A stretch of DNA of 60,676 nucleotides from the NCBI GenBank assembly GCA_034003145.1, contig JAVEZE010000001.1, positions 1 through 60,676 of the forward strand, in the 5' to 3' direction. The translations under genes were made by a program, and so were the position numbers. Of this stretch, positions 19,313 through 33,865 are shown piece by piece; the first letter of the stretch is position 1, and every line of letters starts with the position of its first letter. This DNA comes from Spirochaetia bacterium. GTDB lineage: Bacteria; Spirochaetota; Spirochaetia; CADAEX01. The notes under the pieces are model-generated. The model was given only the letters and a program-made list of their open reading frames with translations, ran no database searches and was not told the origin of the DNA.

Positions 19313-20293
19313 TTATAAAACCAAAACCGCCGGATTGGCAACGTTTTCCATCTCCTCTCCGTTAAAAAACCTTACAACCCGTTTTACCCCTTCCATAGCC
19401 ATCCGGAGAGTGCATTCAACAGTAAGGGCTGCGGTATGGGGGGAGAGAATAACATTATCCAGTTTAAGCAGGCCGCTTTCCATTTCAATCGGCTCATTTT
19501 CAAATACATCAAGTCCGGCGCCTGCCATTATTTTCTCTTCCAGCGCCTTAACCAGATCTTTTTCATTTATTATTCCTCCCCTTGATGTATTTATCAGGAA
19601 AGCGGTTTTTTTCATTTTTTTCATTTTGCTGAAATCAAAAAGATCTTTTGTCTCTTTTGTCAGAGGCACATGGATTGAGATATAATCAGATTTTTCGATC
19701 AGGGTATCAAGATCAGTAAACCTGACCCAGTCAGAGAAAGAATCCTTTGCTTGAGGAGGAAGAAAATCATCATTCGCGATTATATTCATAGCGAAACTGT
19801 CGCGGCATATTCTGGCAAGTCCTGATCCTATTCTTCCAAAACCGACAAGGCCGAGTGTTTTATCCCTTACATCTGAAGAGAGGCTCTGATACCTAACCTT
19901 AAAATTACCCTTTCGCACCTCAGAATCAATTTTTATTATATTTTTCGAAAGAGAGAGGATAAACATGAGAGCATGCTCAATCACGCTTGTTGTATTTGCC
20001 CCGAGGCTTGATGTGACAACTATACCAGCTTCAGTTGCCGCCTCAAGATCCACGTTATCCACTCCAGCGCCAGTCCTGCTGATGGTTTTAAGTTTTTTTC
20101 CCTTTTCAATAAGATCACGTGTAATTTTGATTCCTGTCCTTAGAACCACAGCCTCAGCATCAGCGATCTTTTCCGCGACTTCTGAATGTTCGCATTTTGA
20201 ACAAACAACAACTTCGCAGTTGTTTTCAAGAAGATAATCATGCGCTTCCTTTTCAATAGGCTGAGGAAGCAGAACCTTGTGTTTCCCGCTCAT
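19313..20293 (-). CDS. D-isomer-specific 2-hydroxyacid dehydrogenase (PGDH/GyaR-like)
   Basis: NAD fold GLVGFGRIGSGLA, followed by HVPLTKET, NTSRGG, LDVFENEP and SPHTAA. Confidence 0.85.
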   Translation of the reverse strand: MSGKHKVLLPQPIEKEAHDYLLENNCEVVVCSKCEHSEVAEKIADAEAVVLRTGIKITRDLIEKGKKLKTISRTGAGVDNVDLEAATEAGIVVTSSLGANTTSVIEHALMFILSLSKNIIKIDSEVRKGNFKVRYQSLSSDVRDKTLGLVGFGRIGSGLARICRDSFAMNIIANDDFLPPQAKDSFSDWVRFTDLDTLIEKSDYISIHVPLTKETKDLFDFSKMKKMKKTAFLINTSRGGIINEKDLVKALEEKIMAGAGLDVFENEPIEMESGLLKLDNVILSPHTAALTVECTLRMAMEGVKRVVRFFNGEEMENVANPAVLVL

Positions 20294-20318
20294 TTATTTG
20301 ACTCCAATATTAACTTTA

Positions 20319-21089
20319 TCACCTTAGGTATCTGCCTCCGCTGACATCAAGTGTGATTCCTGTTATGTATGATGCCTCATCAGACGCGAGAAAAACAACA
20401 GCTGATGCAATTTCACCAGGTGTGCTTAACCTTCTTAACGGGATATTTTTAAGCGTTCTTTCCTGCTCTTCCTTCCCCTTGTCATCCCAGAGCCCTTTTA
20501 CCCGCTCCCCTGTCATTGTGATAGTAGGGGCAACCCCGGTTACCCGTATTCCTTTTTCACCCCAGTCATAGGCAAGCTGCCTGGTAAGACCCTCAACTCC
20601 CGCCTTGGCGGCAGTATACTGTACTCCGGCAAGGCTTGCCCTGTAGTGTGCCGCAAGAGCTGAAATATTGACGATTGAGCCGCCTCCCTGCTCTGCCATT
20701 ATATTTATGGCTTTTCTGCAGCAGAAAAACGCCCCTTTAAGGTTTACATCAAGAACAAGGTTCCAGTGTTTATCCTCAATCTCATTTAATTTATAAGGGG
20801 TGTTAAGCGCGCCTCCAGCGTTATTTACCAGTATATCAAGTTTTCCGTATTTATTTTTAACCGCGTCAAAAACCTCTCCTACCTGCGCATCAACTGTAAC
20901 GTTCATGCTGTAGCCGTCTGCGGTAAATCCTTCCGATTCAAGAGCGGCAACAGTTTTTTCAACCTGCTCGCTGTTAATATCTGTTATTATTATTATGGCG
21001 CCTTCATTGCCAAGTGCTTTCGCGATGGCAAGTCCCATTCCCTGCGCCGACCCGGTAACAATGGCAACTCTTCCCTCAAGTCTTTTCAT
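20319..21089 (-). CDS. SDR-family oxidoreductase
   Basis: TGSAQGMGLA (TGxxxGxG), NNAG and YTAAK (YxxxK). I trimmed the start to the ATG at 21089 (MKRLEG), which follows a GGAG RBS. The 33 upstream codons in the ORF track look non-coding. Confidence 0.85.
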   Translation of the reverse strand: MKRLEGRVAIVTGSAQGMGLAIAKALGNEGAIIIITDINSEQVEKTVAALESEGFTADGYSMNVTVDAQVGEVFDAVKNKYGKLDILVNNAGGALNTPYKLNEIEDKHWNLVLDVNLKGAFFCCRKAINIMAEQGGGSIVNISALAAHYRASLAGVQYTAAKAGVEGLTRQLAYDWGEKGIRVTGVAPTITMTGERVKGLWDDKGKEEQERTLKNIPLRRLSTPGEIASAVVFLASDEASYITGITLDVSGGRYLR

Positions 21090-21229
21090 GGTTTCTCCTA
21101 CAGGATTTATCTTTATGATATTCCAGGTGTGTATCCGGTCTGGCCCTGATGCGCACCTTACAGTAAGATACCCCGAACCTTGCGGCACGGGGCATCTGTA
21201 TTAACATTTAATTACAAAAACCCCGATAA

Positions 21230-22108
21230 CTACGCGCGGTTATTGAAAGCTCTTTTTTCTTCAGGAACCTTAATGTCGAATTTTTTGATTTCCTCGATAA
21301 GAGCAGCAAGAAGTTCGCCGCCTCTCTTGAGGATTTTCTCTCCCTTCTCTTTTGAGGCGCGCAAGGGATTTCCGATTGTTGCAGTATCAGAATATTCATG
21401 GTGTTCCATCGGTACCCACATGCATTCATCGCCCCTGAATGTCACGAATCCTGAACCGTCATGTTTTGTGAACTCCTTTGTCATCCATTTCGGCGCGTGT
21501 GTTCTGTCTTCCTTGGCAAGTTCCATGGCAACAGACTCAGGTTTATACGCCCATGCTGTTGATGTCTCAAGCTCGCCTGCGTGCCAGCCCGGTGTTTCCT
21601 CAGGTGTTCCCTCAAGGATATCTGCGATAAACCTGTAATTCCTTTCTGTCGGGGTTTTAAACCATCCTACAAAACATCCGGTTTCATACCTTATTTTTCT
21701 AAGTACATCATCGATAACTTTTGAGTTGCTTCCATGGTGTGTAACAAATATAAGTTTGTTGTAACCGTGGTATATAAGGCTTTTGGCAAGATCATAAACT
21801 ACTCTTCTGTATGTATCGCCTGAAAAGGTAAGTGTTCCTGTTCCCTCTCCCTCTCTTCCCATATGGTGGGGAGAATATCCTACCGGCATTAAAGGTGTGT
21901 AAAGGGTATCTGTTAATTTAGCAGCTTCTTCAATAACACCCATAGCTGTAAAACTGTCTGTTCCAAGCGGACAATGCGCTCCGTGTTTTTCGATAGATCC
22001 CATGCTTACGATAATTGTATCGTTTTTCTTGAGATGCTCCCGTACATCTGTATATCCCAGATCCAGGATATTCAGGCTTTTTCCTCTTTTCATTCCATCT
22101 GATGACAT
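21230..22108 (-). CDS. creatininase-superfamily metal-dependent hydrolase (copy 1)
   Basis: GSIEKHGAHCPLGTDS, THHGSN and GELETS fit the creatininase-fold metal-ligand pattern. GGAGG RBS 7 nt upstream. Confidence 0.75.
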   Translation of the reverse strand: MSSDGMKRGKSLNILDLGYTDVREHLKKNDTIIVSMGSIEKHGAHCPLGTDSFTAMGVIEEAAKLTDTLYTPLMPVGYSPHHMGREGEGTGTLTFSGDTYRRVVYDLAKSLIYHGYNKLIFVTHHGSNSKVIDDVLRKIRYETGCFVGWFKTPTERNYRFIADILEGTPEETPGWHAGELETSTAWAYKPESVAMELAKEDRTHAPKWMTKEFTKHDGSGFVTFRGDECMWVPMEHHEYSDTATIGNPLRASKEKGEKILKRGGELLAALIEEIKKFDIKVPEEKRAFNNRA

Positions 22109-22136
22109 CTGTAAACCTCCATTGGTTAAATACTAT

Positions 22137-23033
22137 TTATTTCAAAAACCCGCTTTCCTTAAGGTCAGCTTCAAGTGTTTTTTTCTGTTCATCGGTAAGT
22201 CCTAAAAGAGGCTTCCTTGTCAGCCCCCCAGAGAACCCGGCAAGATCCATCGCGTATTTTACTCCCGCAACCCCGTAGGCCCCTGATACTTTTTTATTGA
22301 GATCAACAAGCTTTTTGTTAAGCTCTACCGCTTCAGCTTTTTTTCCTGAAACATAAAGGCTGTAAAGCTCGGCGCAGGAATCAGGAAAAACATTAGCGAG
22401 AGATAAAACCCCGCCTGTTCCCCCTTTATCAAGAAGATCAAGAAAGTATCCCGCGCTCCCTGCCATTACGGAAAAATCGCTGCTGTTAAATACCACGTTT
22501 TCAGGCCATGTCTCCTTGCTCGAATCCTTGATTCCCGCGACATTGGCATGCTGTGATACCACCTTGATAACAGCCGGCCTTATTGTGACTCCCGCTGCCA
22601 CTGAAGGATTGTTGTAAAGAACCACAGGTATTGGGGATGCGTCTGCCACATCCGTGATATGCCTTATCATCACTTCATCTGTAATTTTCTTCGCGAAAAA
22701 ATTGGGCATCAGAAGACTTACCATAACCGCGCCCATATCGGCGGCTTTTTTAGTAAGTCTGATTGTTTCCCTGGTGCTTTCGGCTCCGGTTCCTGCCATT
22801 ACAATTTTCCCCGGAGCAGCTTTTTTAATTGCGATAGAGAGTACCCTGAATCTTTCTTCTTCAGACATGGTTTTGAATTCTCCATTTGTTCCAAGGACAA
22901 AATACCCTTTAAGGCCTGAAGAGTTCATCAGTTCCACATTTTTTTCAAATCCGGCATAGTCTACTTCATCATTTTCAAATGGAGTACACATCGGGGAATA
23001 AACCCCGGAAAGCATTTCTTTAGCTTTGATCAT
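22137..23033 (-). CDS. DHDPS/N-acetylneuraminate-lyase family class I aldolase
   Basis: GYFVLGTNGEF and the Schiff-base lysine context AGIKDSS. I moved the start to the ATG at 23033, which follows AGGAGG. The track start at 23048 is a TTG. Confidence 0.8.
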   Translation of the reverse strand: MIKAKEMLSGVYSPMCTPFENDEVDYAGFEKNVELMNSSGLKGYFVLGTNGEFKTMSEEERFRVLSIAIKKAAPGKIVMAGTGAESTRETIRLTKKAADMGAVMVSLLMPNFFAKKITDEVMIRHITDVADASPIPVVLYNNPSVAAGVTIRPAVIKVVSQHANVAGIKDSSKETWPENVVFNSSDFSVMAGSAGYFLDLLDKGGTGGVLSLANVFPDSCAELYSLYVSGKKAEAVELNKKLVDLNKKVSGAYGVAGVKYAMDLAGFSGGLTRKPLLGLTDEQKKTLEADLKESGFLK

Positions 23034-23075
23034 TATTCCTCCTGGCAAATTATCCGCCTATAAGTTATAAGTTAA

Positions 23076-24329
23076 TCACTTTCCCTTTATAAAACTGAAA
23101 AGCTTATTGACTGCTATATCAATAAATTCACTGTCATTTATATGCATATCAAGTTCGTTATACGGAACATCTTTACGTAAATTCTTTTTAAGCGCCCCTA
23201 TAAATGCCGCGTTCCCTTCCGGGTCCCAATGCTCCCTCTCTATTGAATCAGGAAAGGAAAATCCCCTAAGCGGGATGTAAACATGCACCTTGCCTTTTGA
23301 AAGATTTATTTTTTGCGCAGTTATCTTCCCGACTTCGGTAAGCTCATCAGGTGTAAGTCTTACGAGAGTGAGAAAAGAGTTGTGTATAATGTGCTGCCTC
23401 TTTTTAAGCTCATCGCTTACTTCAGCATAAGGGCCCTGTACTGTATAGTTGATGCTGCCCGGCGCTATAACCTGGGGAAGCCCTGTCCTTGCCGCGCTTT
23501 CAAGCCGCCCTTCCCTTACCGAGCCGTGAAGCCCTCCGAAATAACGGTCGCCGATTTCATGAAGATTTATGTCAAGAACTCCCTTAAAAAGCCCTTCCTC
23601 TATCATTTCTTCCATCGCTATTCCGCCTGTGCCGTTCTGGTGAAACGCGACAAAATCATAATTCTCTTTTTCGATAAGTTCCTTGGCATAAAGGGCTCCC
23701 GGGGTTGTAGTGCCAAGCATACTGACAGCGATTGACCCTGCCCGCCCTGCGCCGCTTCGCCCTAAGCTTTGCCGTCTTGCCTTAACCATACCGCAGACTG
23801 CAGAAGCTGCATTGTCAAAAACACTTCTTGTGACTATATTAAGCCCTTGAATATCGCATACAGAATGCATCATTATAATGTCTTTTGTCCCGGTAAAAGG
23901 GCCGAAAGCCGCCTTTCCTGAGGCAACTGTTGATACCATGAATTTGGGAACTCCGAAAGGAAGCTCTCTCATCGCGGCTGTCCCAATATCTGTTCCTTGA
24001 GCTCCGCCTATTGAAAGAACTGCCGCTATTTTACCTTCGCTGTAAAGCCTCTTCGTGATTATCTTGATTCCCTTTGTAATCGACTTTATGCTGTAGCCTT
24101 TGTCTTTTTTTGCCTTAAGCTCGTCTATGGAAAGGGCGCAGCCTGCCTTGACAATCTCTTCCCCCCTGATGTCTTCTTTTCCCATGATGTCAGTTTTCCC
24201 GGCAAGAGAAAGGAATACTCCGGTGTTAGCAAGTATTACTTTTTCCCCGTGGCTTTCGATCCGGGCCTTTACATAGGAGGCTTCTTCTGATTTTGTATCA
24301 AGTGTTGCGATAAGTAAAACAGAGGACAT
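23076..24329 (-). CDS. UPF0261 / Tm-1-like ATP-binding domain protein
   Basis: 417 aa with N-terminal LLIATLDTKSEEASYVKARIE, characteristic of the UPF0261 family. No PEP-hydrolase-like TIM-barrel partner lies next to it. Confidence 0.7.
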   Translation of the reverse strand: MSSVLLIATLDTKSEEASYVKARIESHGEKVILANTGVFLSLAGKTDIMGKEDIRGEEIVKAGCALSIDELKAKKDKGYSIKSITKGIKIITKRLYSEGKIAAVLSIGGAQGTDIGTAAMRELPFGVPKFMVSTVASGKAAFGPFTGTKDIIMMHSVCDIQGLNIVTRSVFDNAASAVCGMVKARRQSLGRSGAGRAGSIAVSMLGTTTPGALYAKELIEKENYDFVAFHQNGTGGIAMEEMIEEGLFKGVLDINLHEIGDRYFGGLHGSVREGRLESAARTGLPQVIAPGSINYTVQGPYAEVSDELKKRQHIIHNSFLTLVRLTPDELTEVGKITAQKINLSKGKVHVYIPLRGFSFPDSIEREHWDPEGNAAFIGALKKNLRKDVPYNELDMHINDSEFIDIAVNKLFSFIKGK

Positions 24330-24334
24330 TACAC

Positions 24335-25411
24335 CTACTCCTGGGGCTTTGAAATAACTTTTATCGCGCCGTCAATCCTGTTGTTGAATGTATCAAATGC
24401 CTCATTTATTTTAGCAATCGGGAATGTATGGGTAATAAGCGGCTTAAGATCAACAATCCCTTTATTTAAAAAAGTCGCTGCCCGTCCAACGTTTGCCCAT
24501 CCTTCGCCCCTTACAGTAAAAATATGCTTATTGTTAAGGGCAAGATCCTCAAAATCGGCAGGAAACGGTTTATGAGGGAAAGCAAGAAGGAGAATTTTTC
24601 CCATTCTTTTTGCTGATTTTATTGAAAGCCCAAGCCCTGCCTCAGAACCGGAAGCCTCTATCGCGAGGTCACACCCTTTACCGCCTGTTTCCTTCATTAT
24701 TATTTCAAGAGGATCCTGCTTTTTGGTATTGATGATAATATCGGCACCTGTCTTTTCAGCAATCTGCAGCCTTGAGTCTCTTGTGCCAAGCAGTATTATC
24801 TTTCCCGCGCCAAGAGCTCTTGCAGCCTGAACCGCGTTTAGACCCAGAGGTCCCGGGCCGATTATCACAATTGTGTCGCCTGCTATAAATCCGCCGATTG
24901 TCTCAAATCCGTATAATACGCATCCCAGGTTTGTCGCGAGGGATGCCTCATCAAAAGATACTTTGTCCGCTATTTTGTGAACTGTATTTATATGGTTTAT
25001 AACATACTGGGCATTGCCGCCGTTAGTGGTAAAACCGTTTGCCCTGTGCCCTTTGGCGGTATCACCGTAATTAAGGCATCCTGTGTAGTTTCCAAGGCGG
25101 CAATTCCTGCACCTGCCGCATCCGTTATGCGCCTCTACTGTTACCCGGTCGCCCACTGCGAACTCGTCAACCGTCTCACCAAGGGCAGCGACTGTTCCGG
25201 AATACTCATGTCCTATTATAAAATCCCCGTAGGGAGGCTGGCCCGGAAAAGGTTTGTGGATAAGCCCTGTATCAGAGCCGCACAATGCGCAGGACTCGAC
25301 TTTAATAAGTACATCTACCGGCCCAGGTGCCGGCACCTTCATCTCCTTGACTTCAAGTTTATCCGGCCCCATAAGGACAACAGCTTTCATAAATTCCGGA
25401 ATATTAGTCAT
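24335..25411 (-). CDS. MDR-family Zn-dependent dehydrogenase (sorbitol/threonine-DH-like)
   Basis: CGSD...GHEYSG, structural-Zn cluster GCGRCRNC and the GPGPLG fold. It is a clear paralog of the 41528-42598 product. Confidence 0.85.
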   Translation of the reverse strand: MTNIPEFMKAVVLMGPDKLEVKEMKVPAPGPVDVLIKVESCALCGSDTGLIHKPFPGQPPYGDFIIGHEYSGTVAALGETVDEFAVGDRVTVEAHNGCGRCRNCRLGNYTGCLNYGDTAKGHRANGFTTNGGNAQYVINHINTVHKIADKVSFDEASLATNLGCVLYGFETIGGFIAGDTIVIIGPGPLGLNAVQAARALGAGKIILLGTRDSRLQIAEKTGADIIINTKKQDPLEIIMKETGGKGCDLAIEASGSEAGLGLSIKSAKRMGKILLLAFPHKPFPADFEDLALNNKHIFTVRGEGWANVGRAATFLNKGIVDLKPLITHTFPIAKINEAFDTFNNRIDGAIKVISKPQE

Positions 25412-25417: not shown

Positions 25418-26119
25418 TTATTCTCCTTCAATTATAATCTTGAACTCGTTTTCAACATCCACTATGTGATCATACATGTATGAAAAAGCCAGATGTTCAT
25501 CCCCAATGCTGATTGCCTTGAAAATCTTTTCATGAAAATCAAGTGATTTAGGCATTATATTGCTATACCTTTCAATCAGGACTACTGCCTGATTTTTCTT
25601 CATAAGATCCTTGAAGCTTTTAATAAAAGTCTCAAGAATTGTATTGCCTGAAGCTTCAAAAACAAGATCATGAAAACGGCTGTCATGAAGTATGAAATCA
25701 TCAACATTTCCTGCGCCGTTTTTCATCTCATCAAGCTCAAGCTCAAGCTTCTCAACCAAATCTTTATCAGCGCGCCTGGCGGCAAACCCTGCCAATGCCG
25801 GCTCTATAACTTTCCTTACTTCAATAATTTCAATTATATCCCTGTATTCATCAAGTTTGATTTCTACATCAGGTTTTAACTTTCCTTCTGTTACAAAGGT
25901 CCCGTTCCTTTTCCTTTCAACAAGTCCCATATGTATCAGAACTTTAAGTGCTTCACGCACAGTTCCCCGTCCGACACCCATGCTTTCTGCGAGTGACTCC
26001 TCCGCAGGCAGCCTTTGCCCTGTTTTAAGTCTTCTGCTTAAAATTTCGTTTTTGAGATATTCAACAATCTCTTCTGACATACTCACGCGGTCAATTTTTT
26101 TAAAATCCATACCTGTCAC
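25418..26119 (-). CDS. GntR-family transcriptional regulator, FadR subfamily (wHTH + FCD domain)
   Basis: The N-terminus LPAEESLAESMGVGRGTVREALKVL is a GntR wHTH. The C-terminal all-helical region of about 150 aa is typical of FCD domains. Confidence 0.85.
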   Translation of the reverse strand: MTGMDFKKIDRVSMSEEIVEYLKNEILSRRLKTGQRLPAEESLAESMGVGRGTVREALKVLIHMGLVERKRNGTFVTEGKLKPDVEIKLDEYRDIIEIIEVRKVIEPALAGFAARRADKDLVEKLELELDEMKNGAGNVDDFILHDSRFHDLVFEASGNTILETFIKSFKDLMKKNQAVVLIERYSNIMPKSLDFHEKIFKAISIGDEHLAFSYMYDHIVDVENEFKIIIEGE

Positions 26120-26137: not shown

Positions 26138-26182
26138 TTTGTATGACAATACTACTGTACCATCATTTTACCTAATTGTCAA
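26138..26182 (-). promoter_or_regulatory. promoter TTGACA-17-TACAGT with the dyad operator ATTGTCATACAAA 3 nt downstream (GntR autoregulation site)
   Basis: Minus strand: -35 at 26177-26182, -10 at 26154-26159 (preceded by TGG), dyad at 26138-26150. Confidence 0.6.
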
Positions 26183-26211: not shown

Positions 26212-27252
26212 TCAAAGTTCTTTAAAAACTATCCTGCCGTAGATGCTGTCAAGCATAGAACCGTCAAAAACCTTATTTAAGGAAGACATTTCCATCTCAG
26301 ATGAGACAATCGGCTTCAGTGTACCGTTTTTAACATAATTTATCAGCTCAATTAATTCCTGTTTTGTACCAAGCCGGGAGCCTATAATTTCCCATTCATT
26401 GTAATGCATACCCAGGGCATCAAGCGGAACAGGCTTAAGAGGATCATACCCCATCAGAACAAGCTTGCCTCCCTTTTTCAGGCTTTTAAGCGCCCAGGGA
26501 AATGTCACTGCTGTACCTACTCCGTCAAGAACAACATCAGCGCCAAAACCTTCAGTCCATTCCCTGATTGCAGAAACAGGGTCCTGAGATTCCGGGTTAA
26601 ATACAACATCAGCCCCAAACCTCGTTGCTTCAGCCAGTGATTTATCCCTGATGTCAGCACCGGCAACTTCCGCACCAAGCATCTTGCCAAGCAAAACAGC
26701 ATGAAGGCCGAGTCCTCCAAGTCCGATGACAAGAACTTTTACGCCACTTTTTACTTTTCCAAGCGCTTTTAAGGCATGGTAAGGGGTAAGGACTGCATCA
26801 GGAAGGACAGCCATCTCTGCCCATAAGACCTTATGGTCATCAACAGGGCAGAAATTATATGCAGGGATTGCTATATATTCAGCAAATGCCCCGTCAAGCT
26901 CAAACCCTGTCCTTTTTATCTCAAAACAGATGTTCTCTCTTCCTGTTCTGCAAAGCCCGCAGTCCCTGCATGGTATGTAGTGATATACTATCCCCCTGTC
27001 ACCAGGTTTTAATCTTTTAACATTCTTTCCTGTCTCAACTATTTCCCCTGCCCCTTCATGTCCGGGGATATGGGGAAGCTTGATTATTCCGTCAAGTTTA
27101 CCGGTATATATTTTCATGTCTGTTCCGCAGATTCCTGCAGCTTTTACCCTTACAAGAACATCATCATCGCCGACCGGCGGCAGTGGAACATCTTTTAATA
27201 CCAGGGGGCTGTTATACTTTTCAAGAACCCAGGCTTTCATTGTATTTTTCAT
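26212..27252 (-). CDS. MDR-family Zn-dependent alcohol dehydrogenase
   Basis: CGTD, GHEGAG, CRDCGLCRTG and GLGGLG. I placed the start at ATG 27252 (MKNTMKAWVL), which follows a GAGG RBS. The track start at 27264 is a TTG. Confidence 0.85.
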   Translation of the reverse strand: MKNTMKAWVLEKYNSPLVLKDVPLPPVGDDDVLVRVKAAGICGTDMKIYTGKLDGIIKLPHIPGHEGAGEIVETGKNVKRLKPGDRGIVYHYIPCRDCGLCRTGRENICFEIKRTGFELDGAFAEYIAIPAYNFCPVDDHKVLWAEMAVLPDAVLTPYHALKALGKVKSGVKVLVIGLGGLGLHAVLLGKMLGAEVAGADIRDKSLAEATRFGADVVFNPESQDPVSAIREWTEGFGADVVLDGVGTAVTFPWALKSLKKGGKLVLMGYDPLKPVPLDALGMHYNEWEIIGSRLGTKQELIELINYVKNGTLKPIVSSEMEMSSLNKVFDGSMLDSIYGRIVFKEL

Positions 27253-27270
27253 TTTCAACCTCAATTTTCT

Positions 27271-28146
27271 TTAATCGTTGAATCCGAACGCTGTTCCCTT
27301 AACCCCGTAAAGACCGGTTGGTTTTATAAGGATAGTGATAAACATAACGATAAATGGGCCTACAAATGCAAGAGGAGCCCAGATTGTCCCTCCGACATTT
27401 ATAACCTGCCCCAGGACAAGGGAGGCGACCATTGTTCCCTTAATACTTCCCAGGCCGCCCAGTATTACGGTAATGAATGCGAATAAAAGCATATCAAACC
27501 CCATATAAGGTCCGACCATCACAAGAGGCGCGTTAAGCGCTCCCCCAAGCCCGGCAAAAGCGCTTGCGATTACAAATGTGGTTGTGAATATCCTGTTGAT
27601 ATTAACCCCAAGCCCTTCTACGTTTTCCCTGTTTTCAATTCCTGCCCGCAGAGCTTTGCCGGTAATTGTTTTGTTCATTAAAATCTGTATAAAAAGATAT
27701 GCGGCTGCAGCAATAACAATAATGATAAGCCTGTAAAGCGGTATCTGAATATTCATCAGCCGTACTATTGTTGAAATCGGAGATGCAACAGGTTTTGGGT
27801 CAAGGCCGTAGATAAACTGGATAACGCCGATACCTATCATGAATACACTGAAAGTCACAACCATCGTAAACATCATGTTCCTGTGATAAACTTTTCTTAA
27901 AAGGGTTGTTTCGACAATGAATCCAAGCAGCCCTCCTATAAGCGCTGCTCCTACCGCTCCAAGGAGAAAGCTTCCGGTTAAAGTTACTATCGTATATGTA
28001 ATATATGCGCCGAATGAATAGTAAAGCATTGCTTCCATGTTAACTATTCTCATAAGTCCGTAACCGATTGATAATGCAAGTGATATCAGAAATAATATTC
28101 CGCTTGTACTTAATCCGTATATAATTGCTGTAAACCAGGTTTCCAT
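27271..28146 (-). CDS. livH: branched-chain-amino-acid-type ABC permease (LivH-like)
   Basis: 291-aa polytopic protein in a LivG-F-M-H-type gene order. The substrate is not inferable. Confidence 0.8.
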   Translation of the reverse strand: METWFTAIIYGLSTSGILFLISLALSIGYGLMRIVNMEAMLYYSFGAYITYTIVTLTGSFLLGAVGAALIGGLLGFIVETTLLRKVYHRNMMFTMVVTFSVFMIGIGVIQFIYGLDPKPVASPISTIVRLMNIQIPLYRLIIIVIAAAAYLFIQILMNKTITGKALRAGIENRENVEGLGVNINRIFTTTFVIASAFAGLGGALNAPLVMVGPYMGFDMLLFAFITVILGGLGSIKGTMVASLVLGQVINVGGTIWAPLAFVGPFIVMFITILIKPTGLYGVKGTAFGFND

Positions 28147-28164: not shown

Positions 28165-29154
28165 TTATTTTTCTGCTGTCTTGATACTTTCTTTTTTGTA
28201 TTTTTTGGATAAATCAAAGATAAAGCTGCCGGTATCCTGAATCAGGCCCCATAGCCCCCTGTTGAATTTAAAAAGGACAACAAGCGTCATAATGCCTACA
28301 ACAAATTCCCATCTTGAAAGCCAGCTGCTCACAAAGTCTTTCATCCCGAGGAAACCAAGCGCTCCGAAAAAAGGGCCGTAAACTGTCCCGATACCGCCGA
28401 TCAACGTAGCCAGCAGAACCTCAATCGCTCTTGAATTTTCCCCGAGACTGGGATTGACAAACCCGAAATTGACAGCATAAAGCGATCCTGCAATTGTTGA
28501 GAATACTACAGAAATAGTATAGGCGAGCCATCTGATCCTGAAAACATTGTAGCCGAGAAACCTCATTTTCCGCGGATTGGAGTTTGAGGCCTTGAGTATA
28601 GATCCTAGCGCTGATTTGTCCATTTTCCGGTAAATATATAATGCGGCCAGAAGGACAAACATTATAAAAAAGAAATAATTCTGCGGCAGCCTTATGTCAA
28701 GGAAAGGTGTCTTTGCCATATTGCTTCTGTACCACAGTCCGTCATTTCCGTTTGTAATATCGATAAGAAGCCTCTCAAACATGAATACTCCGATCGCGCA
28801 AAGAGAGGCGTTGATAAGGGTAAAATAACTCCCCTTAAGCCGCATCAGGCTGGGGCCAAGTATCAAAGAAAGCAGGAGGCCGACCAGAACGGCAAATAAC
28901 ATTGCGACAAAAACATTCCCGCCGAGATATGCCAGGTAAAGGGCTGCTGCATATGCCCCGCAGCTTAAATAGAACGGCTGGCCGAATGAGGTATATCCCA
29001 TATATCCCATAAGGATATTGTTGCCCATTACAAAAATTGTATATATCGATATTTCAGTAAAAAAGGTTATCTTGTTGGGAAACAGATAACGGCTTATCAA
29101 AAGACCGATAATAATAAAAACCGGTCCGAATATTTCAAGTTTCTTAAGTTTCAT
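28165..29154 (-). CDS. livM: branched-chain-amino-acid-type ABC permease (LivM-like)
   Basis: 329-aa polytopic protein adjacent to the LivH-like gene. Confidence 0.8.
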   Translation of the reverse strand: MKLKKLEIFGPVFIIIGLLISRYLFPNKITFFTEISIYTIFVMGNNILMGYMGYTSFGQPFYLSCGAYAAALYLAYLGGNVFVAMLFAVLVGLLLSLILGPSLMRLKGSYFTLINASLCAIGVFMFERLLIDITNGNDGLWYRSNMAKTPFLDIRLPQNYFFFIMFVLLAALYIYRKMDKSALGSILKASNSNPRKMRFLGYNVFRIRWLAYTISVVFSTIAGSLYAVNFGFVNPSLGENSRAIEVLLATLIGGIGTVYGPFFGALGFLGMKDFVSSWLSRWEFVVGIMTLVVLFKFNRGLWGLIQDTGSFIFDLSKKYKKESIKTAEK

Positions 29155-29171: not shown

Positions 29172-29867
29172 TTATAAATATTGCTCAAAGCATAAATTAC
29201 CAATATCTTCCCTGCTGATAATTTCATTGACAACCTTGCCTTCTTTCATGCAGTAAACCCTGTCGGCGATTTCCGCTATCAGGGGAAGGTTCTGTTCCAC
29301 TATAAACAATGTCGTGGTTTTACTAAGTTTTTTAAAAATTGCAGCCAGGTCCTTGATTACATGGGGAGCAAGCCCTTCAGTCGGCTCATCCAGCATGACA
29401 AGGCTGGGCTTTCCTATCATGGCCATAGCGATAAGAAGCATCTGTTTTTCACCGCCGCTTAAGTTCCCTGCCTTCCTGTCAATCAGCTCCCTGAGCTTCG
29501 GAAACATTCCAAGAACAGGTTCCCAGTCATAATCTTTTGTCGCATAACTGCTTAACTCGAGGTTTTCTTTTACGGTAAGATCTCCGAAAACCTGCTTATC
29601 CTGATGGATATATTTAAGCCCTGATCTTGCAGTCTTGTAGGCCCCTGTTTTATTTATGTTATTACCCTTGAATTCTATATTTCCCTCCGCGGGGGAAAGA
29701 AAGCCGGCAATTGTCCTGAAAAGGGTAGTTTTTCCCGCTCCGTTTCTGCCTACAAGAAATACAACCTCGCCGGCATTCACATTAACAGAAACATCAAAAA
29801 GCACAGCAAGTTTTCCGTAACAGACATTCAGATTGTCAACTTTCAAAAGTTTACTTTCCTGATTCAT
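29172..29867 (-). CDS. livF: ABC ATP-binding protein, LivF-like
   Basis: Walker A GRNGAGKTT, signature LSGGEKQML and Walker B LDEPTEGL. 231 aa. Confidence 0.85.
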   Translation of the reverse strand: MNQESKLLKVDNLNVCYGKLAVLFDVSVNVNAGEVVFLVGRNGAGKTTLFRTIAGFLSPAEGNIEFKGNNINKTGAYKTARSGLKYIHQDKQVFGDLTVKENLELSSYATKDYDWEPVLGMFPKLRELIDRKAGNLSGGEKQMLLIAMAMIGKPSLVMLDEPTEGLAPHVIKDLAAIFKKLSKTTTLFIVEQNLPLIAEIADRVYCMKEGKVVNEIISREDIGNLCFEQYL

Positions 29868-29902
29868 TTACTTCTCCGTATTTTATAAAAAATATTGAAA
29901 AA

Positions 29903-30664
29903 TCATTCTTCGATTTTCCAATAGGATTTTCGAACAACAGGATTATTAAGTGTTTCCTCACACGGCCCTGATGCTATCATTTTCCCCTCATGCATTACGC
30001 ACAGGGTATCAACAATCTCTGTCAGCTTTGAAAGCTTGTGCTCAACAATAATTATTGTCTTTTTATGCAGCTGCTTTTTTAATATTTCAATTATCTCGTC
30101 AATTTCATGATCGCTTATTCCTGCAAACGGTTCATCAAGAATAAAAACATGGGGATCGGAAATCCAGGCCATGGCAATTTCAAGCCTTTTCTGACTGCCC
30201 AGTGAGAGATTACCGACAATCTGACTGCTTTCTTTTTCAAGGCTGAATACCCTGAGCGCCTCTTCAACTTTCTCTGTAATCTTATTGTGTTTTTTGAAAT
30301 TTGTATTGTAAAGATTCAGAGGCATGGATTTGTTTTCCATTTTTCTGTAAATCGATAACGCGAGATTTTCAAAAGCAGTTATATTATCAAAAACATGAAC
30401 CAGCTGGAATGTTCTGACTATACCCTTTGCTACCCTCTTTTCGCTTTTCATCGAAGTTATATCCTCGCCCTGAAAAAAAACGCGTCCTTCTTCCGGAATA
30501 TATTCACCTGTCAATATGTTTATAAATGTTGTTTTACCGGCGCCGTTAGGCCCGAATATTCCGACAGCATCGTTTTCTTTTATGCTGAAATCAACATTAT
30601 CAACTGCTTTGAATAATCCGAATATTTTTGATACATTTTTTGTCTCAAATATGGCTTCGCTCAT
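29903..30664 (-). CDS. livG: ABC ATP-binding protein, LivG-like
   Basis: Walker A GPNGAGKTT, degenerate signature LSLGSQKRLEIA and Walker B ILDEPFAG. 253 aa. Confidence 0.85.
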   Translation of the reverse strand: MSEAIFETKNVSKIFGLFKAVDNVDFSIKENDAVGIFGPNGAGKTTFINILTGEYIPEEGRVFFQGEDITSMKSEKRVAKGIVRTFQLVHVFDNITAFENLALSIYRKMENKSMPLNLYNTNFKKHNKITEKVEEALRVFSLEKESSQIVGNLSLGSQKRLEIAMAWISDPHVFILDEPFAGISDHEIDEIIEILKKQLHKKTIIIVEHKLSKLTEIVDTLCVMHEGKMIASGPCEETLNNPVVRKSYWKIEE

Positions 30665-30771
30665 TTTTTACTCCCGATATTAAAATACCGCATCCGCCAG
30701 GGATGCATGATGCATTAATTAGCATTTTTTTGAGATCAGATGCTTTATTACCTTGGGATCATCGCTTTCAT

Positions 30772-31149
30772 TTATTTTTTAGCAGGCATATAAGGCATAG
30801 CCGGCGCGAACACATTGTAAAGCTTGACAGTTTTTTTGATGTTTTTTATGGTATGTTTTGTGTTAGGCGGAACCATAACAACCATTCCCGCTTCAAGGGG
30901 AAACTCACCTTCTCCCTCGATAAACATTGTTGCCTCCCCCTCAAGGACATGAATAAGGTCAGGCTGGTCGCGGTGAACATGCTCAGGCAAAGAGAGCCCT
31001 TCCCTGAGTTCTATCAGCATAACAGTAATCGGTGTTCCGTCTTTTTCCCTGGAATATATCCATTTAATTTTACTGCCGCCGTCATCCATGAAATGCTCTT
31101 CCCATGGGACATCGCTTATTTTTTTCTTTACTTCATATTTTGGTACCAT
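30772..31149 (-). CDS. cupin domain protein
   Basis: 125 aa with cupin motifs LPEHVHRDQPDLIHVLEG and VMVPPNTKH. Confidence 0.75.
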   Translation of the reverse strand: MVPKYEVKKKISDVPWEEHFMDDGGSKIKWIYSREKDGTPITVMLIELREGLSLPEHVHRDQPDLIHVLEGEATMFIEGEGEFPLEAGMVVMVPPNTKHTIKNIKKTVKLYNVFAPAMPYMPAKK

Positions 31150-31173
31150 TTTTTACCCCTTCTCCTATTTGAA

Positions 31174-32418
31174 TTAATATCCCATTACAGAAAGAGGAGG
31201 AAGAACTTCTTCTCCTCCGAATGAGTCGACCACAGTGAATAAATCCCAATTATTTTTCTTTTCAGCAGGGGTTTTCCCCTTTAAAAGAAAAGCGGTATGG
31301 TCATTTATCGGCTGTCTGTCTTTTCTGAAAATGTAGCTCCCTTTTATTGTGTCGATTTTTTTAGTCTCAAATATATTACTAACCTTTTCAGGATCAAATG
31401 TCCCTGCCTCTTCAACTGCCCCGAATATAAGCTTCGCGGCAAGGTATGCCGCAGTTCCCATATTATCCGGCGGCTCATTCCATCTTGCCATGTAGGCATC
31501 CGAGTATTTTTTTACCTTTTCAGCTACTGCCTTGTCTTTGAATCCTGTTAAATCATAATAAAACCACGCAAGCGCATAATGCCCGGCAAGAGCGTTCTCG
31601 GGAATCCCCTTGGCTACTATATTTGCGGTCCAGACATTAAAAATTGTGCTTACATCATAAAACCCAAGGTCATATGCCTGCTTAAGATTTGCTATCGCGT
31701 CTCCGCCGAACATTGTAGTGACAAAAACATCGGGTTTTAACCTGAGCGCCTTGTTTATGACTGCAGAATAATCAACAGTCCCTGCCGGCAGCTCTTCAAC
31801 CGCAACTATTTCTGTACCGTATTGTTTACACGCCGCTTCAAGCCCTTCCTGAATAACTGTACCCCATGAATCAGCTCTCTTCAGCAGAAAAATGGTTTTT
31901 TTACCCAGATTCTTCGCGATAGACTGGCCTGTAATATACCCGATGCTCCACGGTGTAAAAGTGGGAGTGTAGGAACATACAGCAGGATTTCCTGCCATAA
32001 AAGCGTCTTTCGCCGGCACAAAGCCAGGAACATATATAACAGGATTTATTTTTGTCTCTTCATTAAGTGCAGCAGACATGGGATTCCAGATTCCCCCTGT
32101 AAGTGCATCCATTCCCTGGTCCATCATTTCCCTGAATTTTCTCACCCCCACATCAAGCTTTGCCTGATCATCCTCTATCATTGATTCAACAGGAATCTTT
32201 CCCCAGGGCATATCAAGACCGCCGGCTGCGTTTATTTCTTCCACTGCAAGGATAAATGATTTTTTCTGGGTTTCTGCGACACCTGCAAAAGTGCCGCTCA
32301 ATGAAGAAGAAAAACCCATCTTGAAAACTGTGGGGTTTTCCTCTTCCTTCTTTCCTGCTGCGAATAGAACTGATGCGGCGCATATCAAAAGTATGGCAAA
32401 AAATAATTTTTTCTTCAT
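31174..32418 (-). CDS. Liv-type (periplasmic-binding-protein type 1) ABC substrate-binding protein, copy 2
   Basis: Signal peptide (LFAAGKKE). It shares long blocks with copy 1: FKMGF, ETQKK, GGLDMPWGK, AKLDVGVR and WNPMSAA. Confidence 0.8.
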   Translation of the reverse strand: MKKKLFFAILLICAASVLFAAGKKEEENPTVFKMGFSSSLSGTFAGVAETQKKSFILAVEEINAAGGLDMPWGKIPVESMIEDDQAKLDVGVRKFREMMDQGMDALTGGIWNPMSAALNEETKINPVIYVPGFVPAKDAFMAGNPAVCSYTPTFTPWSIGYITGQSIAKNLGKKTIFLLKRADSWGTVIQEGLEAACKQYGTEIVAVEELPAGTVDYSAVINKALRLKPDVFVTTMFGGDAIANLKQAYDLGFYDVSTIFNVWTANIVAKGIPENALAGHYALAWFYYDLTGFKDKAVAEKVKKYSDAYMARWNEPPDNMGTAAYLAAKLIFGAVEEAGTFDPEKVSNIFETKKIDTIKGSYIFRKDRQPINDHTAFLLKGKTPAEKKNNWDLFTVVDSFGGEEVLPPLSVMGY

Positions 32419-32459
32419 TTTTAATAAAACTCCTTAAAACCTTTTTCAGGAAATATTTT

Positions 32460-32531
32460 ACAGCCGCAGCCGGATGTGATACCCGGCGCTGCTGTAATTT
32501 TTTTCTCTGATATCAGTTCCCGGATATCAGA
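32460..32531 (-). other. two stem-loops between the tandem binding-protein genes
   Basis: Imperfect GC-rich hairpin at 32460-32495. Perfect 9-bp stem TCTGATATC (32506-32514) / GATATCAGA (32523-32531), 2 nt after the copy-1 stop codon. Confidence 0.55.
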
Positions 32532-32533
32532 AT

Positions 32534-33796
32534 CTAATAACCGAGTGATTTAAGTGAAGGAAGTGCTGATTCGCCGCCGAAAGATCCTATAACCTTAAAT
32601 ACATCATTGGGATCTTTCATTTCGTCTTTGGATTTCCCTTTTACAATAAACGCCAGGTAATCGCCGACAAGCTGCTGATCTTCCCTGAATTTCATTTTTC
32701 CTTTTACAGTATCAAACGTTGTTTCTTTCATTACTTTTGCTACAGCGACAGGATCAAAAGTTCCTGCTTTCTCTACTGATTCAAATATCATTTTTGCTGC
32801 CATGTATGAAATTGTTCCGTAAGCATCAGGCGGCTCGTTCCACATTTTCATGTGCGCCTCAGTATATGCCTTGGCCTTTTTCTCAAGCTCAGGATTACCA
32901 AAACCTTCCAGGTTGTAATAATAGAAATTAAGAGCGTAAAGCTCTTTAAGCGCGTCTGACGGTATTCCTTTTCCAACAACATTAGTTGTCCAGGTATTGA
33001 ACATTTTTGACTGTTTGTGAAGTCCCATATCATAAGCCTGTTTGAAGATTGCAATTGCATCTCCTCCAAACTGGCATGCCATAAATACGTCAGGTTTGAT
33101 TTCAAGCGCCTTGTTTATGGCTGATGAAAAATCAACTGTGCCGAGCGGATATTCAGCAAATCCTACAACTTCCCCGCCGTGCTCCGCGATTGCGGCTTTT
33201 AGCCCTTCAAATATTGTACTTCCCCATGAATCTGCCCTTGATACAAAAAAGATTTTTTTGGCGCCAAGTTCCTGGATAGCCGAAGCTCCCGCAAGATAAC
33301 CGATACTCCAGGGGGTAAACGCGACAGAAAAAGTTCCCACAGCCGGGTTTCCTTTTCTAAATGAATCAAGAGCTGGAACATTACCGGCAAGATACGGGAG
33401 AGGAGCGATCTTTGTTTCTTCATTTATTGCGGCAGACATCGGGTTCCAGACAGTACCTGTAAGGCCGTTGATACCTGCACCGACTAGCTCCCTGAACCTT
33501 CTGACTCCGACATCAAGTTTAGCCTCATCATCCTTTACCAGGGTCTCTATTTTAACCTTGCCCCATGGCATATCAAGGCCCCCTTTCGCGTTTACTTCCT
33601 CTGCCGCAAGGAGTGTCCCTTTTTTCTGGGTTTCACCTACAGCGGCAAATGATCCGCTTAATGATGTCATAAACCCCATTTTGAACTCGGCAGGTTTCGA
33701 ATCTTCTTTGGCGCCTCCTGCCGAAACACTGAAAACAGAAAACAGTACCATTATCAATGCCATAAGCAGAGATAGCAGTTTAATACTTCTTCTCAT
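32534..33796 (-). CDS. Liv-type ABC substrate-binding protein, copy 1
   Basis: 420 aa with a signal peptide. Paralogous to 31174-32418. It is the first gene of the transporter operon. Confidence 0.8.
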   Translation of the reverse strand: MRRSIKLLSLLMALIMVLFSVFSVSAGGAKEDSKPAEFKMGFMTSLSGSFAAVGETQKKGTLLAAEEVNAKGGLDMPWGKVKIETLVKDDEAKLDVGVRRFRELVGAGINGLTGTVWNPMSAAINEETKIAPLPYLAGNVPALDSFRKGNPAVGTFSVAFTPWSIGYLAGASAIQELGAKKIFFVSRADSWGSTIFEGLKAAIAEHGGEVVGFAEYPLGTVDFSSAINKALEIKPDVFMACQFGGDAIAIFKQAYDMGLHKQSKMFNTWTTNVVGKGIPSDALKELYALNFYYYNLEGFGNPELEKKAKAYTEAHMKMWNEPPDAYGTISYMAAKMIFESVEKAGTFDPVAVAKVMKETTFDTVKGKMKFREDQQLVGDYLAFIVKGKSKDEMKDPNDVFKVIGSFGGESALPSLKSLGY

Positions 33797-33821
33797 ATTT
33801 AACTCCTATAAATTATGTTGT

Positions 33822-33865
33822 ATTGTATTACAATATTATTTTAGCACGACGTGGCTGGATGTCAA
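33822..33865 (-). promoter_or_regulatory. promoter TTGACA-16-TAAAAT with the perfect dyad ATTGTAATACAAT 3 nt downstream
   Basis: Minus strand: -35 at 33860-33865, -10 at 33838-33843 (preceded by TGC, an extended -10), dyad at 33822-33834. AGGAG RBS precedes the ATG at 33796. Confidence 0.65.

Follow-up and report, generated by a model that had tools for sequence, protein, structure and literature searches.

What does a cluster of 15 genes on contig JAVEZE010000001.1 (assembly GCA_034003145.1) of a Spirochaetia bacterium break down, and has its pathway been described before? The genes lie in a 60.7-kb stretch of DNA, which was analyzed as a whole and is called the window here. They combine a Liv-type ABC importer with dehydrogenases, a creatininase-family hydrolase, a UPF0261 protein, and an aldolase. 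An earlier reading of the letters alone (the sequence-only reading) had nominated them as an undescribed pathway. The cluster is real, wider than that reading had drawn it, and undescribed; it is most likely a regulon for the catabolism of some polyol or sugar acid, assembled from non-orthologous parts. In its working it resembles the inositol pathways of Thermotoga and Bacillus, but by each test of membership it falls outside both. No protein of its three units reached a curated function-specific (equivalog) cutoff, and the only models passed were generic ones (an unnamed one for UPF0261 and one for SDRs of the glucose-1-dehydrogenase type). No description of the gene set, or of a link among its families, was found in the literature searched. 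The genes are currently annotated as "creatininase family protein," "Tm-1-like ATP-binding protein," and "zinc-binding dehydrogenase."

Co-conservation, on which the sequence-only reading had staked the pathway in advance, was assessed around relatives of the creatininase-family hydrolase. In a collection that represents each of 185,579 species by one genome, a scan with the family alignment retrieved 283 relatives; when the Thermus ortholog was used instead, at least 495 were retrieved. All open reading frames (ORFs) of ~160 loci were clustered and reference proteins were mapped by tblastn. The nonredundant loci examined numbered 147; percentages refer to the 75 of them flanked by at least 7 kb at both ends, neighbors being counted within 7 kb. 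On the same strand as the hydrolase, 87% of these loci had UPF0261 and 93% had an MDR dehydrogenase, across phyla. The genes are thus co-conserved, and the cluster is real. The enzymatic core (MDR, hydrolase, and UPF0261) occurs in at least 10 phyla. The nearest hydrolase relatives (92 to 98% identity) come from spirochete metagenome-assembled genomes, some of them from termite guts. The hosts comprise Spirochaetota, Bacillota (including cultured Moorella and Neomoorella), Atribacterota, Desulfobacterota, Syntrophia, SAR324, Methylomirabilota, Rokubacteria, Armatimonadota, and Actinomycetota (Georgenia, Pseudonocardia, and Rubrobacter), and megaplasmids of Thermus thermophilus are also carriers.

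Two architectures emerged, distinguished by aldolases that never share a locus among the 75: the DHDPS type (type A), found in 20 loci, and class II (type B), found in 47. Type A (20 loci, the window included) joins the hydrolase to a DHDPS-family aldolase, accompanied by an SDR adjoining the hydrolase (17/20), a D-2-hydroxyacid dehydrogenase (2HADH; 16/20), a GntR regulator (12/20), and a Liv-type importer (11/20). Type B (49 loci) joins the hydrolase to a class II (PF00596) aldolase-fold protein, with LacI (46/49), a tripartite tricarboxylate-type transporter (TTT; 20/49), and a TIM barrel (at least 18/49) as companions and 2HADH in none (0/49). The window contains no class II aldolase. In a type A subvariant from Bacillota, Atribacterota, and Sphaerochaetaceae, the SDR and 2HADH are replaced by a split transketolase, RpiB, a PHP phosphatase, a 396-aa TAL/FSA-like protein, and a class II FBA. 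In Treponema loci, a transketolase-like gene of 802 aa lies upstream of the aldolase gene, and the last gene of the Moorella type B clusters encodes an FBP aldolase/phosphatase. Because sugar-phosphate enzymes occur in type A relatives and the FBP aldolase/phosphatase in Moorella, these gene sets suggest phosphorylated C3 to C5 products.

Some hosts carry the cluster in duplicate or in damaged form. The complete spirochete chromosome OY759746.1 holds two type A clusters ~80 kb apart (L004 and L005, at 1.64 and 1.72 Mb); their hydrolases are nearly identical (97% to that of the window) and their transporter arrangements differ. A transposase cuts the type B cluster of T. thermophilus AA1-1 (L088, pAA1-1b) inside the UPF0261 gene. 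The cluster of strain TF19 (L089, pTF19b) is intact and adjoins nar nitrate-respiration genes, and the two strains together offer a natural knock-out pair.

With 57 to 71% identity across phyla, the hydrolase surpasses every other protein of the set in conservation. It is the signature enzyme, a paralog of IolN rather than an ortholog. It matched Pfam PF02633 (184 bits) and scored below the equivalog cutoffs for both creatininase (TIGR04448; 86.3 bits, cutoff 235) and IolN (NF041098; 81.7 bits, cutoff 245); the latter, its second-best curated family, aligned over nearly the full length. Identity to the window's own IolN is 24%. Glu40, His42, Asp51, His125, His176, and Glu181 are invariant, and the first five align with the creatininase metal ligands Glu34/His36/Asp45/His120 and the catalytic His178. 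Beyond these ligands, the hydrolase has an H-G-S motif (Gly126 and Ser127), as do IolN and the uncharacterized protein 3LUB, and lacks the H-Y-E of creatininase (Tyr121 and Glu122). The H-x-G and HA[GD]E.ETS metal-site variants are likewise common to the hydrolase, IolN, and 3LUB but not creatininase. Dihydrophloroglucinol cyclohydrolase was considered as a precedent for ring hydrolysis and rejected, as it belongs to the cyclase/isatin-hydrolase family rather than the creatininase family.

Two creatininase-family genes, in tandem or close together, occur in L127, L146, L070/L151, and L081. In Gracilibacter and Desulfitobacteriia loci, a second copy lies beside an acetyl-xylan-esterase-like gene and TctC. 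L020/L056 (SAR324), L071, L081, and L010 share a Creatinase_N/Peptidase_M24 gene close to the cluster; the SAR324 loci also have a PPDK_N/PEP-utilizer protein and an HMGL-like protein nearby.

UPF0261, which the sequence-only reading had left without a role, is no longer an unassigned family. MarK of Novosphingobium aromaticivorans is its first member with a demonstrated activity, the ATP-to-ADP phosphorylation of phenolic hydroxyls, shown in an evolved variant (PMC12624787). Because the family contains a kinase, a phosphorylation step probably belongs in the pathway. The window protein has two UPF0261 domains (172 and 206 bits), and its closest solved relative is MarK (PDB 9MPY; E = 3e-56, ~32% identity), with which it shares the two-domain fold family. 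The lysine of its ATP-site DTK motif (Lys13), equivalent to Lys20 of Tm-1 and to E16K of MarK, is invariant in eight sequences, and Gly195, His219, and His304 of the MarK acceptor site are kept (Gly206, His230, and His316). In contrast, His348 is replaced by Pro, Phe283 by Tyr, and Ile285 by Val; the pocket motifs are more polar than those of MarK; and acetovanillone carboxylase and phosphatase genes are absent from its context. Because these motifs are type specific (FHQNGTGG with Y[TS]VQGP for type A, FHASGAGG with Y.[CV]FGP for type B), they suggest that type A and type B kinases use different phosphoryl acceptors. The possibility that the kinase had diverged more than the hydrolase between the two types was discarded, as overall identity drops proportionately for both and only the kinase pocket motifs are type specific.

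The aldolase is closer to human HOGA1 (3S5O; 181 bits) than to the best DHDPS among solved structures (141 bits), and it scored 166.4 bits on the DapA equivalog (TIGR00674; cutoff 206). Its motifs GTNGEF, VVLYNNP, and GIKDSS supply the GxxGE signature, the catalytic Tyr, and the Schiff-base Lys, and Tyr168, Lys196, and the HOGA1-specific Asn78 and Ser198 are conserved in the alignment to 3S5O. Translation likely starts at the ATG at 23033. 2HADH resembles phosphoglycerate dehydrogenase and glyoxylate/hydroxypyruvate reductase, with model scores of 287 bits for phosphoglycerate dehydrogenase and 234 bits for glyoxylate reductase, both under cutoff. The best curated model for MDR2 is IolM (NF041097; 204 bits, cutoff 450), which MDR1 matched at 179 bits; the solved structures closest to MDR2 are threonine and sorbitol dehydrogenases. 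MDR1 and MDR2 are 29% identical and keep both zinc sites (in MDR1, a catalytic Cys/His/Glu and a structural Cys4 site), and the MDR1 gene travels with the transporter.

The Liv component set is complete, with binding protein, two permeases, and two ATPases. The binding proteins SBP1 and SBP2 scored 56 and 36 bits on the LivJ/LivK model (NF011933; cutoff 477) and 79 to 82 bits on the urea-type UrtA model (cutoff 493). Homology was uninformative as to their ligand, giving only weak matches to structural-genomics HAAT proteins. The Liv-type importer, to which the sequence-only reading had drawn attention, does not define the system: orthologous clusters use HAAT, TTT, DASS, TAXI-TRAP, MFS, or CUT2 systems interchangeably. 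The small cupin is a candidate isomerase or epimerase; a cupin gene also lies 3' of transporter genes in L036, L038, and L042.

All 15 ORFs between 19313 and 33796 lie on the minus strand, and the two head-to-tail units proposed from the sequence agree with the ORF map to the base. Unit 1 runs SBP1, SBP2, cupin, LivG, LivF, LivM, LivH, and MDR1; unit 2 runs GntR, MDR2, UPF0261, DHDPS, creatininase-family hydrolase, SDR, and 2HADH. Pfam confirmed every family call (two Peripla_BP_6, Cupin_2, two ABC_tran, two BPD_transp_2, and MDR in unit 1; GntR plus FCD, MDR, UPF0261 N and C, DHDPS, Creatininase, SDR, and 2-Hacid_dh in unit 2). The gaps were rightly called short, at 5 to 42 nt within units except for SBP1/SBP2 (115 nt) and cupin/LivG (107 nt). 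That no convincing terminator lies inside the units was partly right, the SBP1/SBP2 spacer being the exception: it folds to -39 kcal/mol (z = -5.4), and 0/200 shuffles fold equally well. This folding suggests a candidate mRNA stabilizer or attenuator after the SBP1 gene, and its hairpins may raise SBP1 expression relative to the genes downstream. An exact copy of the cluster is present on an independent metagenome contig. The term "island" finds no support in base composition, as GC content across the cluster (0.41 to 0.45) is like that of the remaining window; a horizontal-transfer signal was accordingly rejected.

The best sigma-70-like sites on the minus strand are P1 and P2, which lie where the two units would need promoters. 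Each is followed, 3 nt past its -10 element, by a GntR-type palindrome (TATTGTAATACAATA for unit 1 and TATTGTCATACAAAG for unit 2). The operator has the form ATTGT-N3-ACAAT and fits the GntR/FadR-type palindrome t.GT-N3-AC.a. Within the 60.7 kb, the motif TATTGTNATACAA occurs only at the O1 and O2 places (three matches counting both strands, against 0.42 expected). The earlier proposal that the genes form co-regulated units is supported. GntR1 combines winged-helix GntR and FCD domains; its best curated models are NanR (100 bits) and LldR (95 bits), both under cutoff. The palindrome is also kept upstream of orthologous clusters in L024, L025, L026, L008, L074, and L075.

The boundaries of the sequence-only reading (19313 to 33865) missed a third operator-bearing unit at 36804 to 42640, found while annotating the flanks. 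Unit 3 (36804 to 42598) encodes MDR3, an AP_endonuc_2 TIM barrel, TctC, TctB, TctA, and a C_GCAxxG protein. The identity of MDR3 is 49% to MDR2, 49% to the Thermus cluster dehydrogenase, and 55 to 73% to dehydrogenases of type B and hybrid loci. Identity to proteins of a Thermodesulfobacteriota locus (L021) reaches 74% for the TIM barrel, 68% for TctA, and 63% for TctC. In the hybrid locus L026, the MDR3/TIM-barrel/Tct unit directly follows the catabolic genes and is itself preceded by the palindrome. Because the three units share the operator, because orthologs of unit 3 accompany the same hydrolase elsewhere, and because of the L026 arrangement, units 1, 2, and 3 appear to form one regulon, of which GntR1 is the presumed repressor; its binding is what we infer from an operator defined at the sequence level. 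Uptake systems of two kinds are encoded in the units: a TTT system and, with its two binding proteins, a HAAT ABC importer.

Against solved structures, the unit 3 TIM-barrel profile retrieved Thermotoga maritima TM0416 (IolO) first (E = 4.8e-9), followed by tagatose 3-epimerases. On the IolO equivalog (NF041099; cutoff 300 bits), the window's unit 3 TIM barrel gave no match at E < 1e-10, and its L021 ortholog scored 38 bits. An IolE-type dehydratase, which would have solved the deoxy problem considered below, found no support as a role for this protein, as the profile search returned IolO and tagatose epimerases and no IolE structure. The best model for MDR3 is threonine 3-dehydrogenase; it scored 199 bits on IolM (cutoff 450). 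A C_GCAxxG_C_C gene also lies 3' of TctA in L026, L048, and L050.

A genuine and complete Thermotoga-type myo-inositol cluster (46509 to 58847) lies 13 kb from the studied cluster. Besides the genes in Table 1, it contains a Hyi/OtnI-like TIM barrel, a second Gfo/Idh/MocA protein, a CUT2 ABC transporter, and a divergent ROK regulator; no UxaB, UxaA, KdgK, or Eda is visible with it in the window. Because this bona fide Iol cluster stands in the same window, the organism has, by its gene content, a Thermotoga-type myo-inositol route, and the studied cluster is a separate paralogous system. IolN, IolM, and IolG were found within 10 kb in none of the ~160 other loci.

The sequence-only reading could not match the gene set to any nameable pathway, but a close analog exists in the T. 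maritima inositol pathway, described as comprising IolG, IolM, IolN, and IolO in the operon TM0411-TM0416 (Rodionova et al. 2013, as reported in PMC5931981 and PMC12632266). In that pathway, as in the regulon, an MDR and a kinase gene are under common control with a creatininase-family hydrolase, which opens the ring in Thermotoga, and a xylose-isomerase-like TIM barrel, which is an epimerase there, and MDR2/MDR3, the hydrolase, and the TIM barrel are homologous to their Thermotoga counterparts. In contrast, scores are far under the equivalog cutoffs (204/450, 82/245, and none/300), and a Gfo/Idh/MocA IolG is found only in the neighboring cluster, not in the three units. The predicted kinase is UPF0261 rather than a ribokinase-family protein, the transporters are HAAT and TTT rather than CUT2, and the aldolase, SDR, and 2HADH are additions.

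The regulon also matches the logic of the Bacillus subtilis iol pathway (IolG-E-D-B-C-J), in which cyclitol oxidation, hydrolytic ring opening, and phosphorylation of the keto-acid are followed by aldolase cleavage to a C3 phosphate and a C3 acid. Type B relatives (MDR, hydrolase, UPF0261, and class II aldolase) follow the same outline. However, a different protein family would serve each step: there is no thiamine diphosphate-dependent IolD, PfkB-type IolC, or FBA-type IolJ, and the profile search of the TIM barrel detected no similarity to the IolE dehydratase. A fully hydroxylated inositol is in any case an unlikely substrate, given the genuine inositol pathway in the window and the lack of a dehydratase in type A.

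Two further systems invite comparison. HOGA1 and GRHPR form the end of human hydroxyproline catabolism, and the regulon likewise has a HOGA1-like aldolase followed by a 2HADH of the glyoxylate/hydroxypyruvate-reductase kind; proline- and glutamate-handling enzymes are absent from it. Acid-sugar pathways for threonate and erythronate with DUF1537 kinases (OtnK, OtnI, and OtnC) were reportedly described by Zhang et al. in 2016. Their outline is like that of type B: a dehydrogenase and a TIM-barrel isomerase are joined by a kinase from a novel family, and an enzyme with the class II aldolase fold yields dihydroxyacetone phosphate. However, the kinase family differs and the Otn pathways need no hydrolase. 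The OtnC model scored 104 to 126 bits on type B class II proteins, and neither the OtnI nor the OtnC cutoff was reached. An analogy of type B with ascorbate utilization (UlaE/UlaF or SgbU/SgbE) proved weak: the class II proteins (195 to 205 aa) are shorter than the epimerases (~230 aa), and no UlaE model matched.

Our preferred reading, a tentative one held with somewhat less than even confidence, is that a GntR-repressed regulon of three units takes up and breaks down a polyhydroxylated ring compound or sugar acid. MDR1, MDR2, and MDR3 would use NAD(P)+ to oxidize hydroxyls of the ring, forming a ketone or 1,3-diketone, and the IolN-like hydrolase would open the ring with metal assistance to give a keto-acid with a hydroxymethyl-ketone end. 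The IolO-like TIM barrel would epimerize next to the ketone, and the SDR and 2HADH would adjust oxidation states to reach a 4-hydroxy-2-oxo acid. UPF0261 would then transfer one phosphate from ATP onto a hydroxyl group, and the HOGA1-like aldolase would release pyruvate together with a phosphorylated aldehyde or a small oxo-acid (glyoxylate, tartronate semialdehyde, triose phosphate, and tetrose phosphate being the candidates for this fragment). The fragment would be reduced by 2HADH or, in relatives, taken up by the transketolase/transaldolase set. The order that had been proposed (oxidation, hydrolytic cleavage, pyruvate-type aldol cleavage, and fragment reduction) is still the best reading, with the kinase step added. 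Since no dehydratase is present, the substrate or its ring-opened product must already carry a deoxy carbon (CH2). Transporters and regulator type point to a carboxylate as substrate in most hosts.

On paper, a deoxy-inositol would use each type A enzyme once. Two oxidations and hydrolysis would give 3-deoxy-5-keto-hexonate, 2HADH would convert this to 2,5-diketo-3-deoxygluconate, and the SDR would yield 2-keto-3-deoxygluconate (KDG); kinase and aldolase would then produce pyruvate and glyceraldehyde 3-phosphate. Quinate or shikimate is a poor fit by the same kind of reasoning. Hydrolysis of 3,5-didehydroquinate would give a branched citrate analog without the C3 hydroxyl for a class II aldolase; this product would become a 2-oxo acid only after two more oxidations, leaving the kinase without a role, so that the fit to type A is poor as well.

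Several points weigh against the regulon acting on a ring compound in this way. Every step, like the substrate, is one that we infer. The deoxy-inositol scheme is at odds with the class II ending found in type B and leaves the carboxylate-type transporters unexplained, and no single intermediate was found on paper that satisfies both the class I and class II endings. A fully hydroxylated cyclitol would yield no 2-oxo-3-deoxy acid with the type A set, the dehydratase being absent. Most type B clusters have a single MDR, although conversion of a polyol to a diketone needs two oxidations. TTT and DASS suggest an anionic substrate, while the CUT2 systems of some hosts suggest a neutral one. Finally, because the hydrolase scores equally on the creatininase (86) and IolN (82) models and has such low identity to the window's IolN, lactone or amide hydrolysis is equally compatible with its sequence.

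Lactone hydrolysis would instead place the cluster in a semi-phosphorylative Entner-Doudoroff-type oxidative route for a sugar or sugar acid, which we regard as improbable. An MDR would oxidize the hemiacetal of a deoxy-sugar or 4-deoxy-uronate to a lactone, and the creatininase-family enzyme would be the lactonase, a plausible role in that creatininase cleaves a five-membered cyclic amide, chemically near a gamma-lactone. Lactonases, however, are usually dispensable and patchy in occurrence, whereas the hydrolase here is the best-conserved, defining gene. The SDR and 2HADH would lead to a 2-oxo-3-deoxy acid, or from tartronate semialdehyde to glycerate, in keeping with the likeness of 2HADH to glyoxylate/hydroxypyruvate reductases; yet the missing dehydratase excludes ordinary sugars. 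UPF0261 would serve as a KDG-type or glycerate kinase and the DHDPS-family enzyme as a KD(P)G or keto-deoxy-aldarate aldolase, a family that includes archaeal KD(P)G aldolases (96 bits), but the class II aldolase of type B is inactive on keto-deoxy acids. Weak Glu_dehyd_C (archaeal glucose dehydrogenase) matches in MDR2 and MDR3 agree with such a route, as acid sugars do with the transporters and the GntR-FCD regulator. It leaves unexplained why three proteins resemble IolM, IolN, and IolO.

Amide hydrolysis would suggest the ATP-coupled opening of a nitrogen heterocycle or amino acid-like compound, which we consider quite unlikely. UPF0261 would activate an enol or lactim oxygen, and the creatininase-family enzyme would hydrolyze the ring by the logic of 5-oxoprolinase and hydantoinase; C-N hydrolyses are most of the known reactions of the family, the two proteins are near-constant neighbors, and MarK phosphorylates an acidic phenolic OH (PMC12624787). 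The 4-hydroxy-2-oxoglutarate formed would be split by the HOGA1-like aldolase to pyruvate and glyoxylate, and 2HADH would reduce glyoxylate to glycolate, as in the HOGA1/GRHPR pair. The conserved HOGA1-specific residues, the glyoxylate reductase model (second best for 2HADH), the threonine 3-dehydrogenase model for MDR3, and the Liv-type importer all suit this chemistry. The neighborhoods do not: no aminotransferase, deaminase, or ammonia-handling gene recurs among ~150 loci, most clusters have LacI regulators with TTT, DASS, or CUT2 transporters, and sugar-phosphate enzymes (transketolase, transaldolase, RpiB, FBA, and class II aldolase) go with the core.

It is very unlikely that the cluster is the downstream half of the neighboring inositol pathway, replacing UxaB, UxaA, KdgK, and KdgA in converting 5-keto-L-gluconate or D-tagaturonate (from IolN/IolO or imported) to pyruvate and a triose: although the nearby IolG/IolM/IolN cluster shows none of the downstream genes (UxaB, UxaA, KdgK, and Eda), the studied cluster would supply a reductase, kinase, and aldolase, and its importers suit carboxylates, IolN, IolM, and IolG lie within 10 kb of none of the ~160 other loci, its own MDRs and ring-hydrolase paralog would be needless in a downstream module, the UxaA dehydratase is missing here too, and the iol cluster is separately regulated (by the ROK protein and GntR2, 27% identical to GntR1).

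For the ring-compound reading of the regulon, a wider form may be stated, though we think it doubtful. The core would be a third route, not recognized before, for opening carbocyclic polyols (for example, deoxy-cyclitols or hydroaromatic acids), with two interchangeable aldolase endings, widespread in anaerobic Spirochaetota, Bacillota, Atribacterota, and Desulfobacterota and also present in Thermus and Actinomycetota. On this view UPF0261 would have its first role in central carbon catabolism, and the creatininase fold would include a second subfamily of C-C hydrolases. In a bolder form still, kinase and hydrolase would act as one ATP-coupled ring-opening pair.

Table 1. Positions of the genes, promoter-like sites, and predicted operators of the regulon and of the adjacent inositol cluster
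Feature	Position	Strand	Basis
Unit 1 promoter-like site P1, TTGACA-16-TAAAAT, TG-extended	33838..33865	-	11/12 matches
Operator O1, perfect palindrome ATTGTAATACAAT	33822..33834	.	3 nt 3' of P1 -10
SBP1, HAAT-type (Peripla_BP_6) binding protein, signal peptide	32534..33796	-	Pfam 194 bits
SBP1/SBP2 spacer, structured, two hairpins	32419..32533	-	Folding
SBP2, SBP1 paralog	31174..32418	-	Pfam; 54% identity to SBP1
Cupin_2 protein, 125 aa, His motif intact	30772..31149	-	Pfam
LivG-like ABC ATPase	29903..30664	-	Pfam
LivF-like ABC ATPase	29172..29867	-	Pfam
LivM-like permease	28165..29154	-	Pfam
LivH-like permease	27271..28146	-	Pfam
MDR1, Zn-dependent dehydrogenase	26212..27264	-	Pfam, zinc-site residues
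Unit 2 promoter-like site P2, TTGACA-17-TACAGT, TG-extended	26154..26182	-	In 92-nt MDR1/GntR gap
Operator O2, ATTGTCATACAAA, one mismatch to palindrome	26138..26150	.	3 nt 3' of P2 -10
GntR1, GntR/FCD (FadR-type) regulator	25418..26119	-	Pfam
MDR2, polyol-dehydrogenase-type MDR	24335..25411	-	Best curated model IolM (scyllo-inosose 3-dehydrogenase)
UPF0261 (Tm-1-like) protein, predicted ATP-dependent kinase	23076..24329	-	Pfam, MarK similarity
HOGA1-like class I (Schiff-base) pyruvate aldolase, DHDPS family	22137..23048	-	Pfam, HOGA1 similarity
Creatininase-family metallohydrolase	21230..22108	-	Pfam, metal ligands
SDR oxidoreductase	20319..21188	-	Pfam
D-2-Hydroxyacid dehydrogenase (2HADH)	19313..20293	-	Pfam
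Unit 3 promoter-like site P3, TTGACA-18-TAAAAT	42652..42681	-	Read from sequence
Operator O3, perfect palindrome ATTGTACGACAAT	42628..42640	.	Behind P3
MDR3, ortholog of type B cluster dehydrogenase	41528..42598	-	Sequence identity
Xylose-isomerase-like TIM barrel (AP_endonuc_2), ortholog of type B protein	40568..41488	-	Closest solved relative IolO (TM0416)
TctC binding protein, tripartite tricarboxylate-type transporter	39490..40491	-	Pfam, orthology
TctB	38894..39349	-	Pfam
TctA permease	37305..38828	-	Pfam, orthology
C_GCAxxG_C_C putative redox protein	36804..37262	-	Pfam
GntR2, second GntR/FCD	45776-46444	+	27% identical to GntR1
Extra IolM-like MDR	46509-47564
IolM	47579-48835		530 bits, cutoff 450
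IolO-like TIM barrel	48775-49596		232 bits, cutoff 300
IolN	49605-50576		524.6 bits, cutoff 245
IolG	52809-53825		471 bits, cutoff 355

Genes around the units complete the picture of the window. Directly after 2HADH lie NfnA/NfnB-like genes (16804 to 19175; a DHODB Fe-S protein and a GltD-like protein), with a promoter-like site at 19341 to 19312. In the close relatives L003, L004, L007, and L024, 2HADH is followed on its 3' side by a 181-aa ORF and a 597-aa ORF, both unannotated, and by a 685-aa protein resembling the GltD-like NfnB of the window. These Nfn-like genes may be a redox-balancing module linked to the pathway. Unit 3 is followed, with 3- to 4-nt gaps or overlaps, by a CoA-disulfide-reductase/rhodanese gene (35077 to 36807) and LrgA/LrgB (33971 to 35073), which may be cotranscribed with it. 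Between unit 3 and the inositol cluster are an alpha/beta-hydrolase gene (43151 to 43978, plus strand) and a 488-aa ORF (44052 to 45518) with no Pfam match.

If the proposed function is correct, it would apply to a gene cluster present at the 495 or more places retrieved from the species collection and would supply a physiological context for UPF0261, which as a family occurs in every domain of life and has had one activity demonstrated to date. The inositol cluster beside its paralog forms a natural pair for working out what separates the two substrates. Because cultured hosts exist (Thermus thermophilus TF19, Neomoorella and Moorella species, Rubrobacter, and Georgenia) and genuine inositol paralogs are at hand for comparison, the regulon is a good target for function discovery. 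Its substrate would identify a carbon source for uncultured anaerobes of sediments, digesters, and termite guts.

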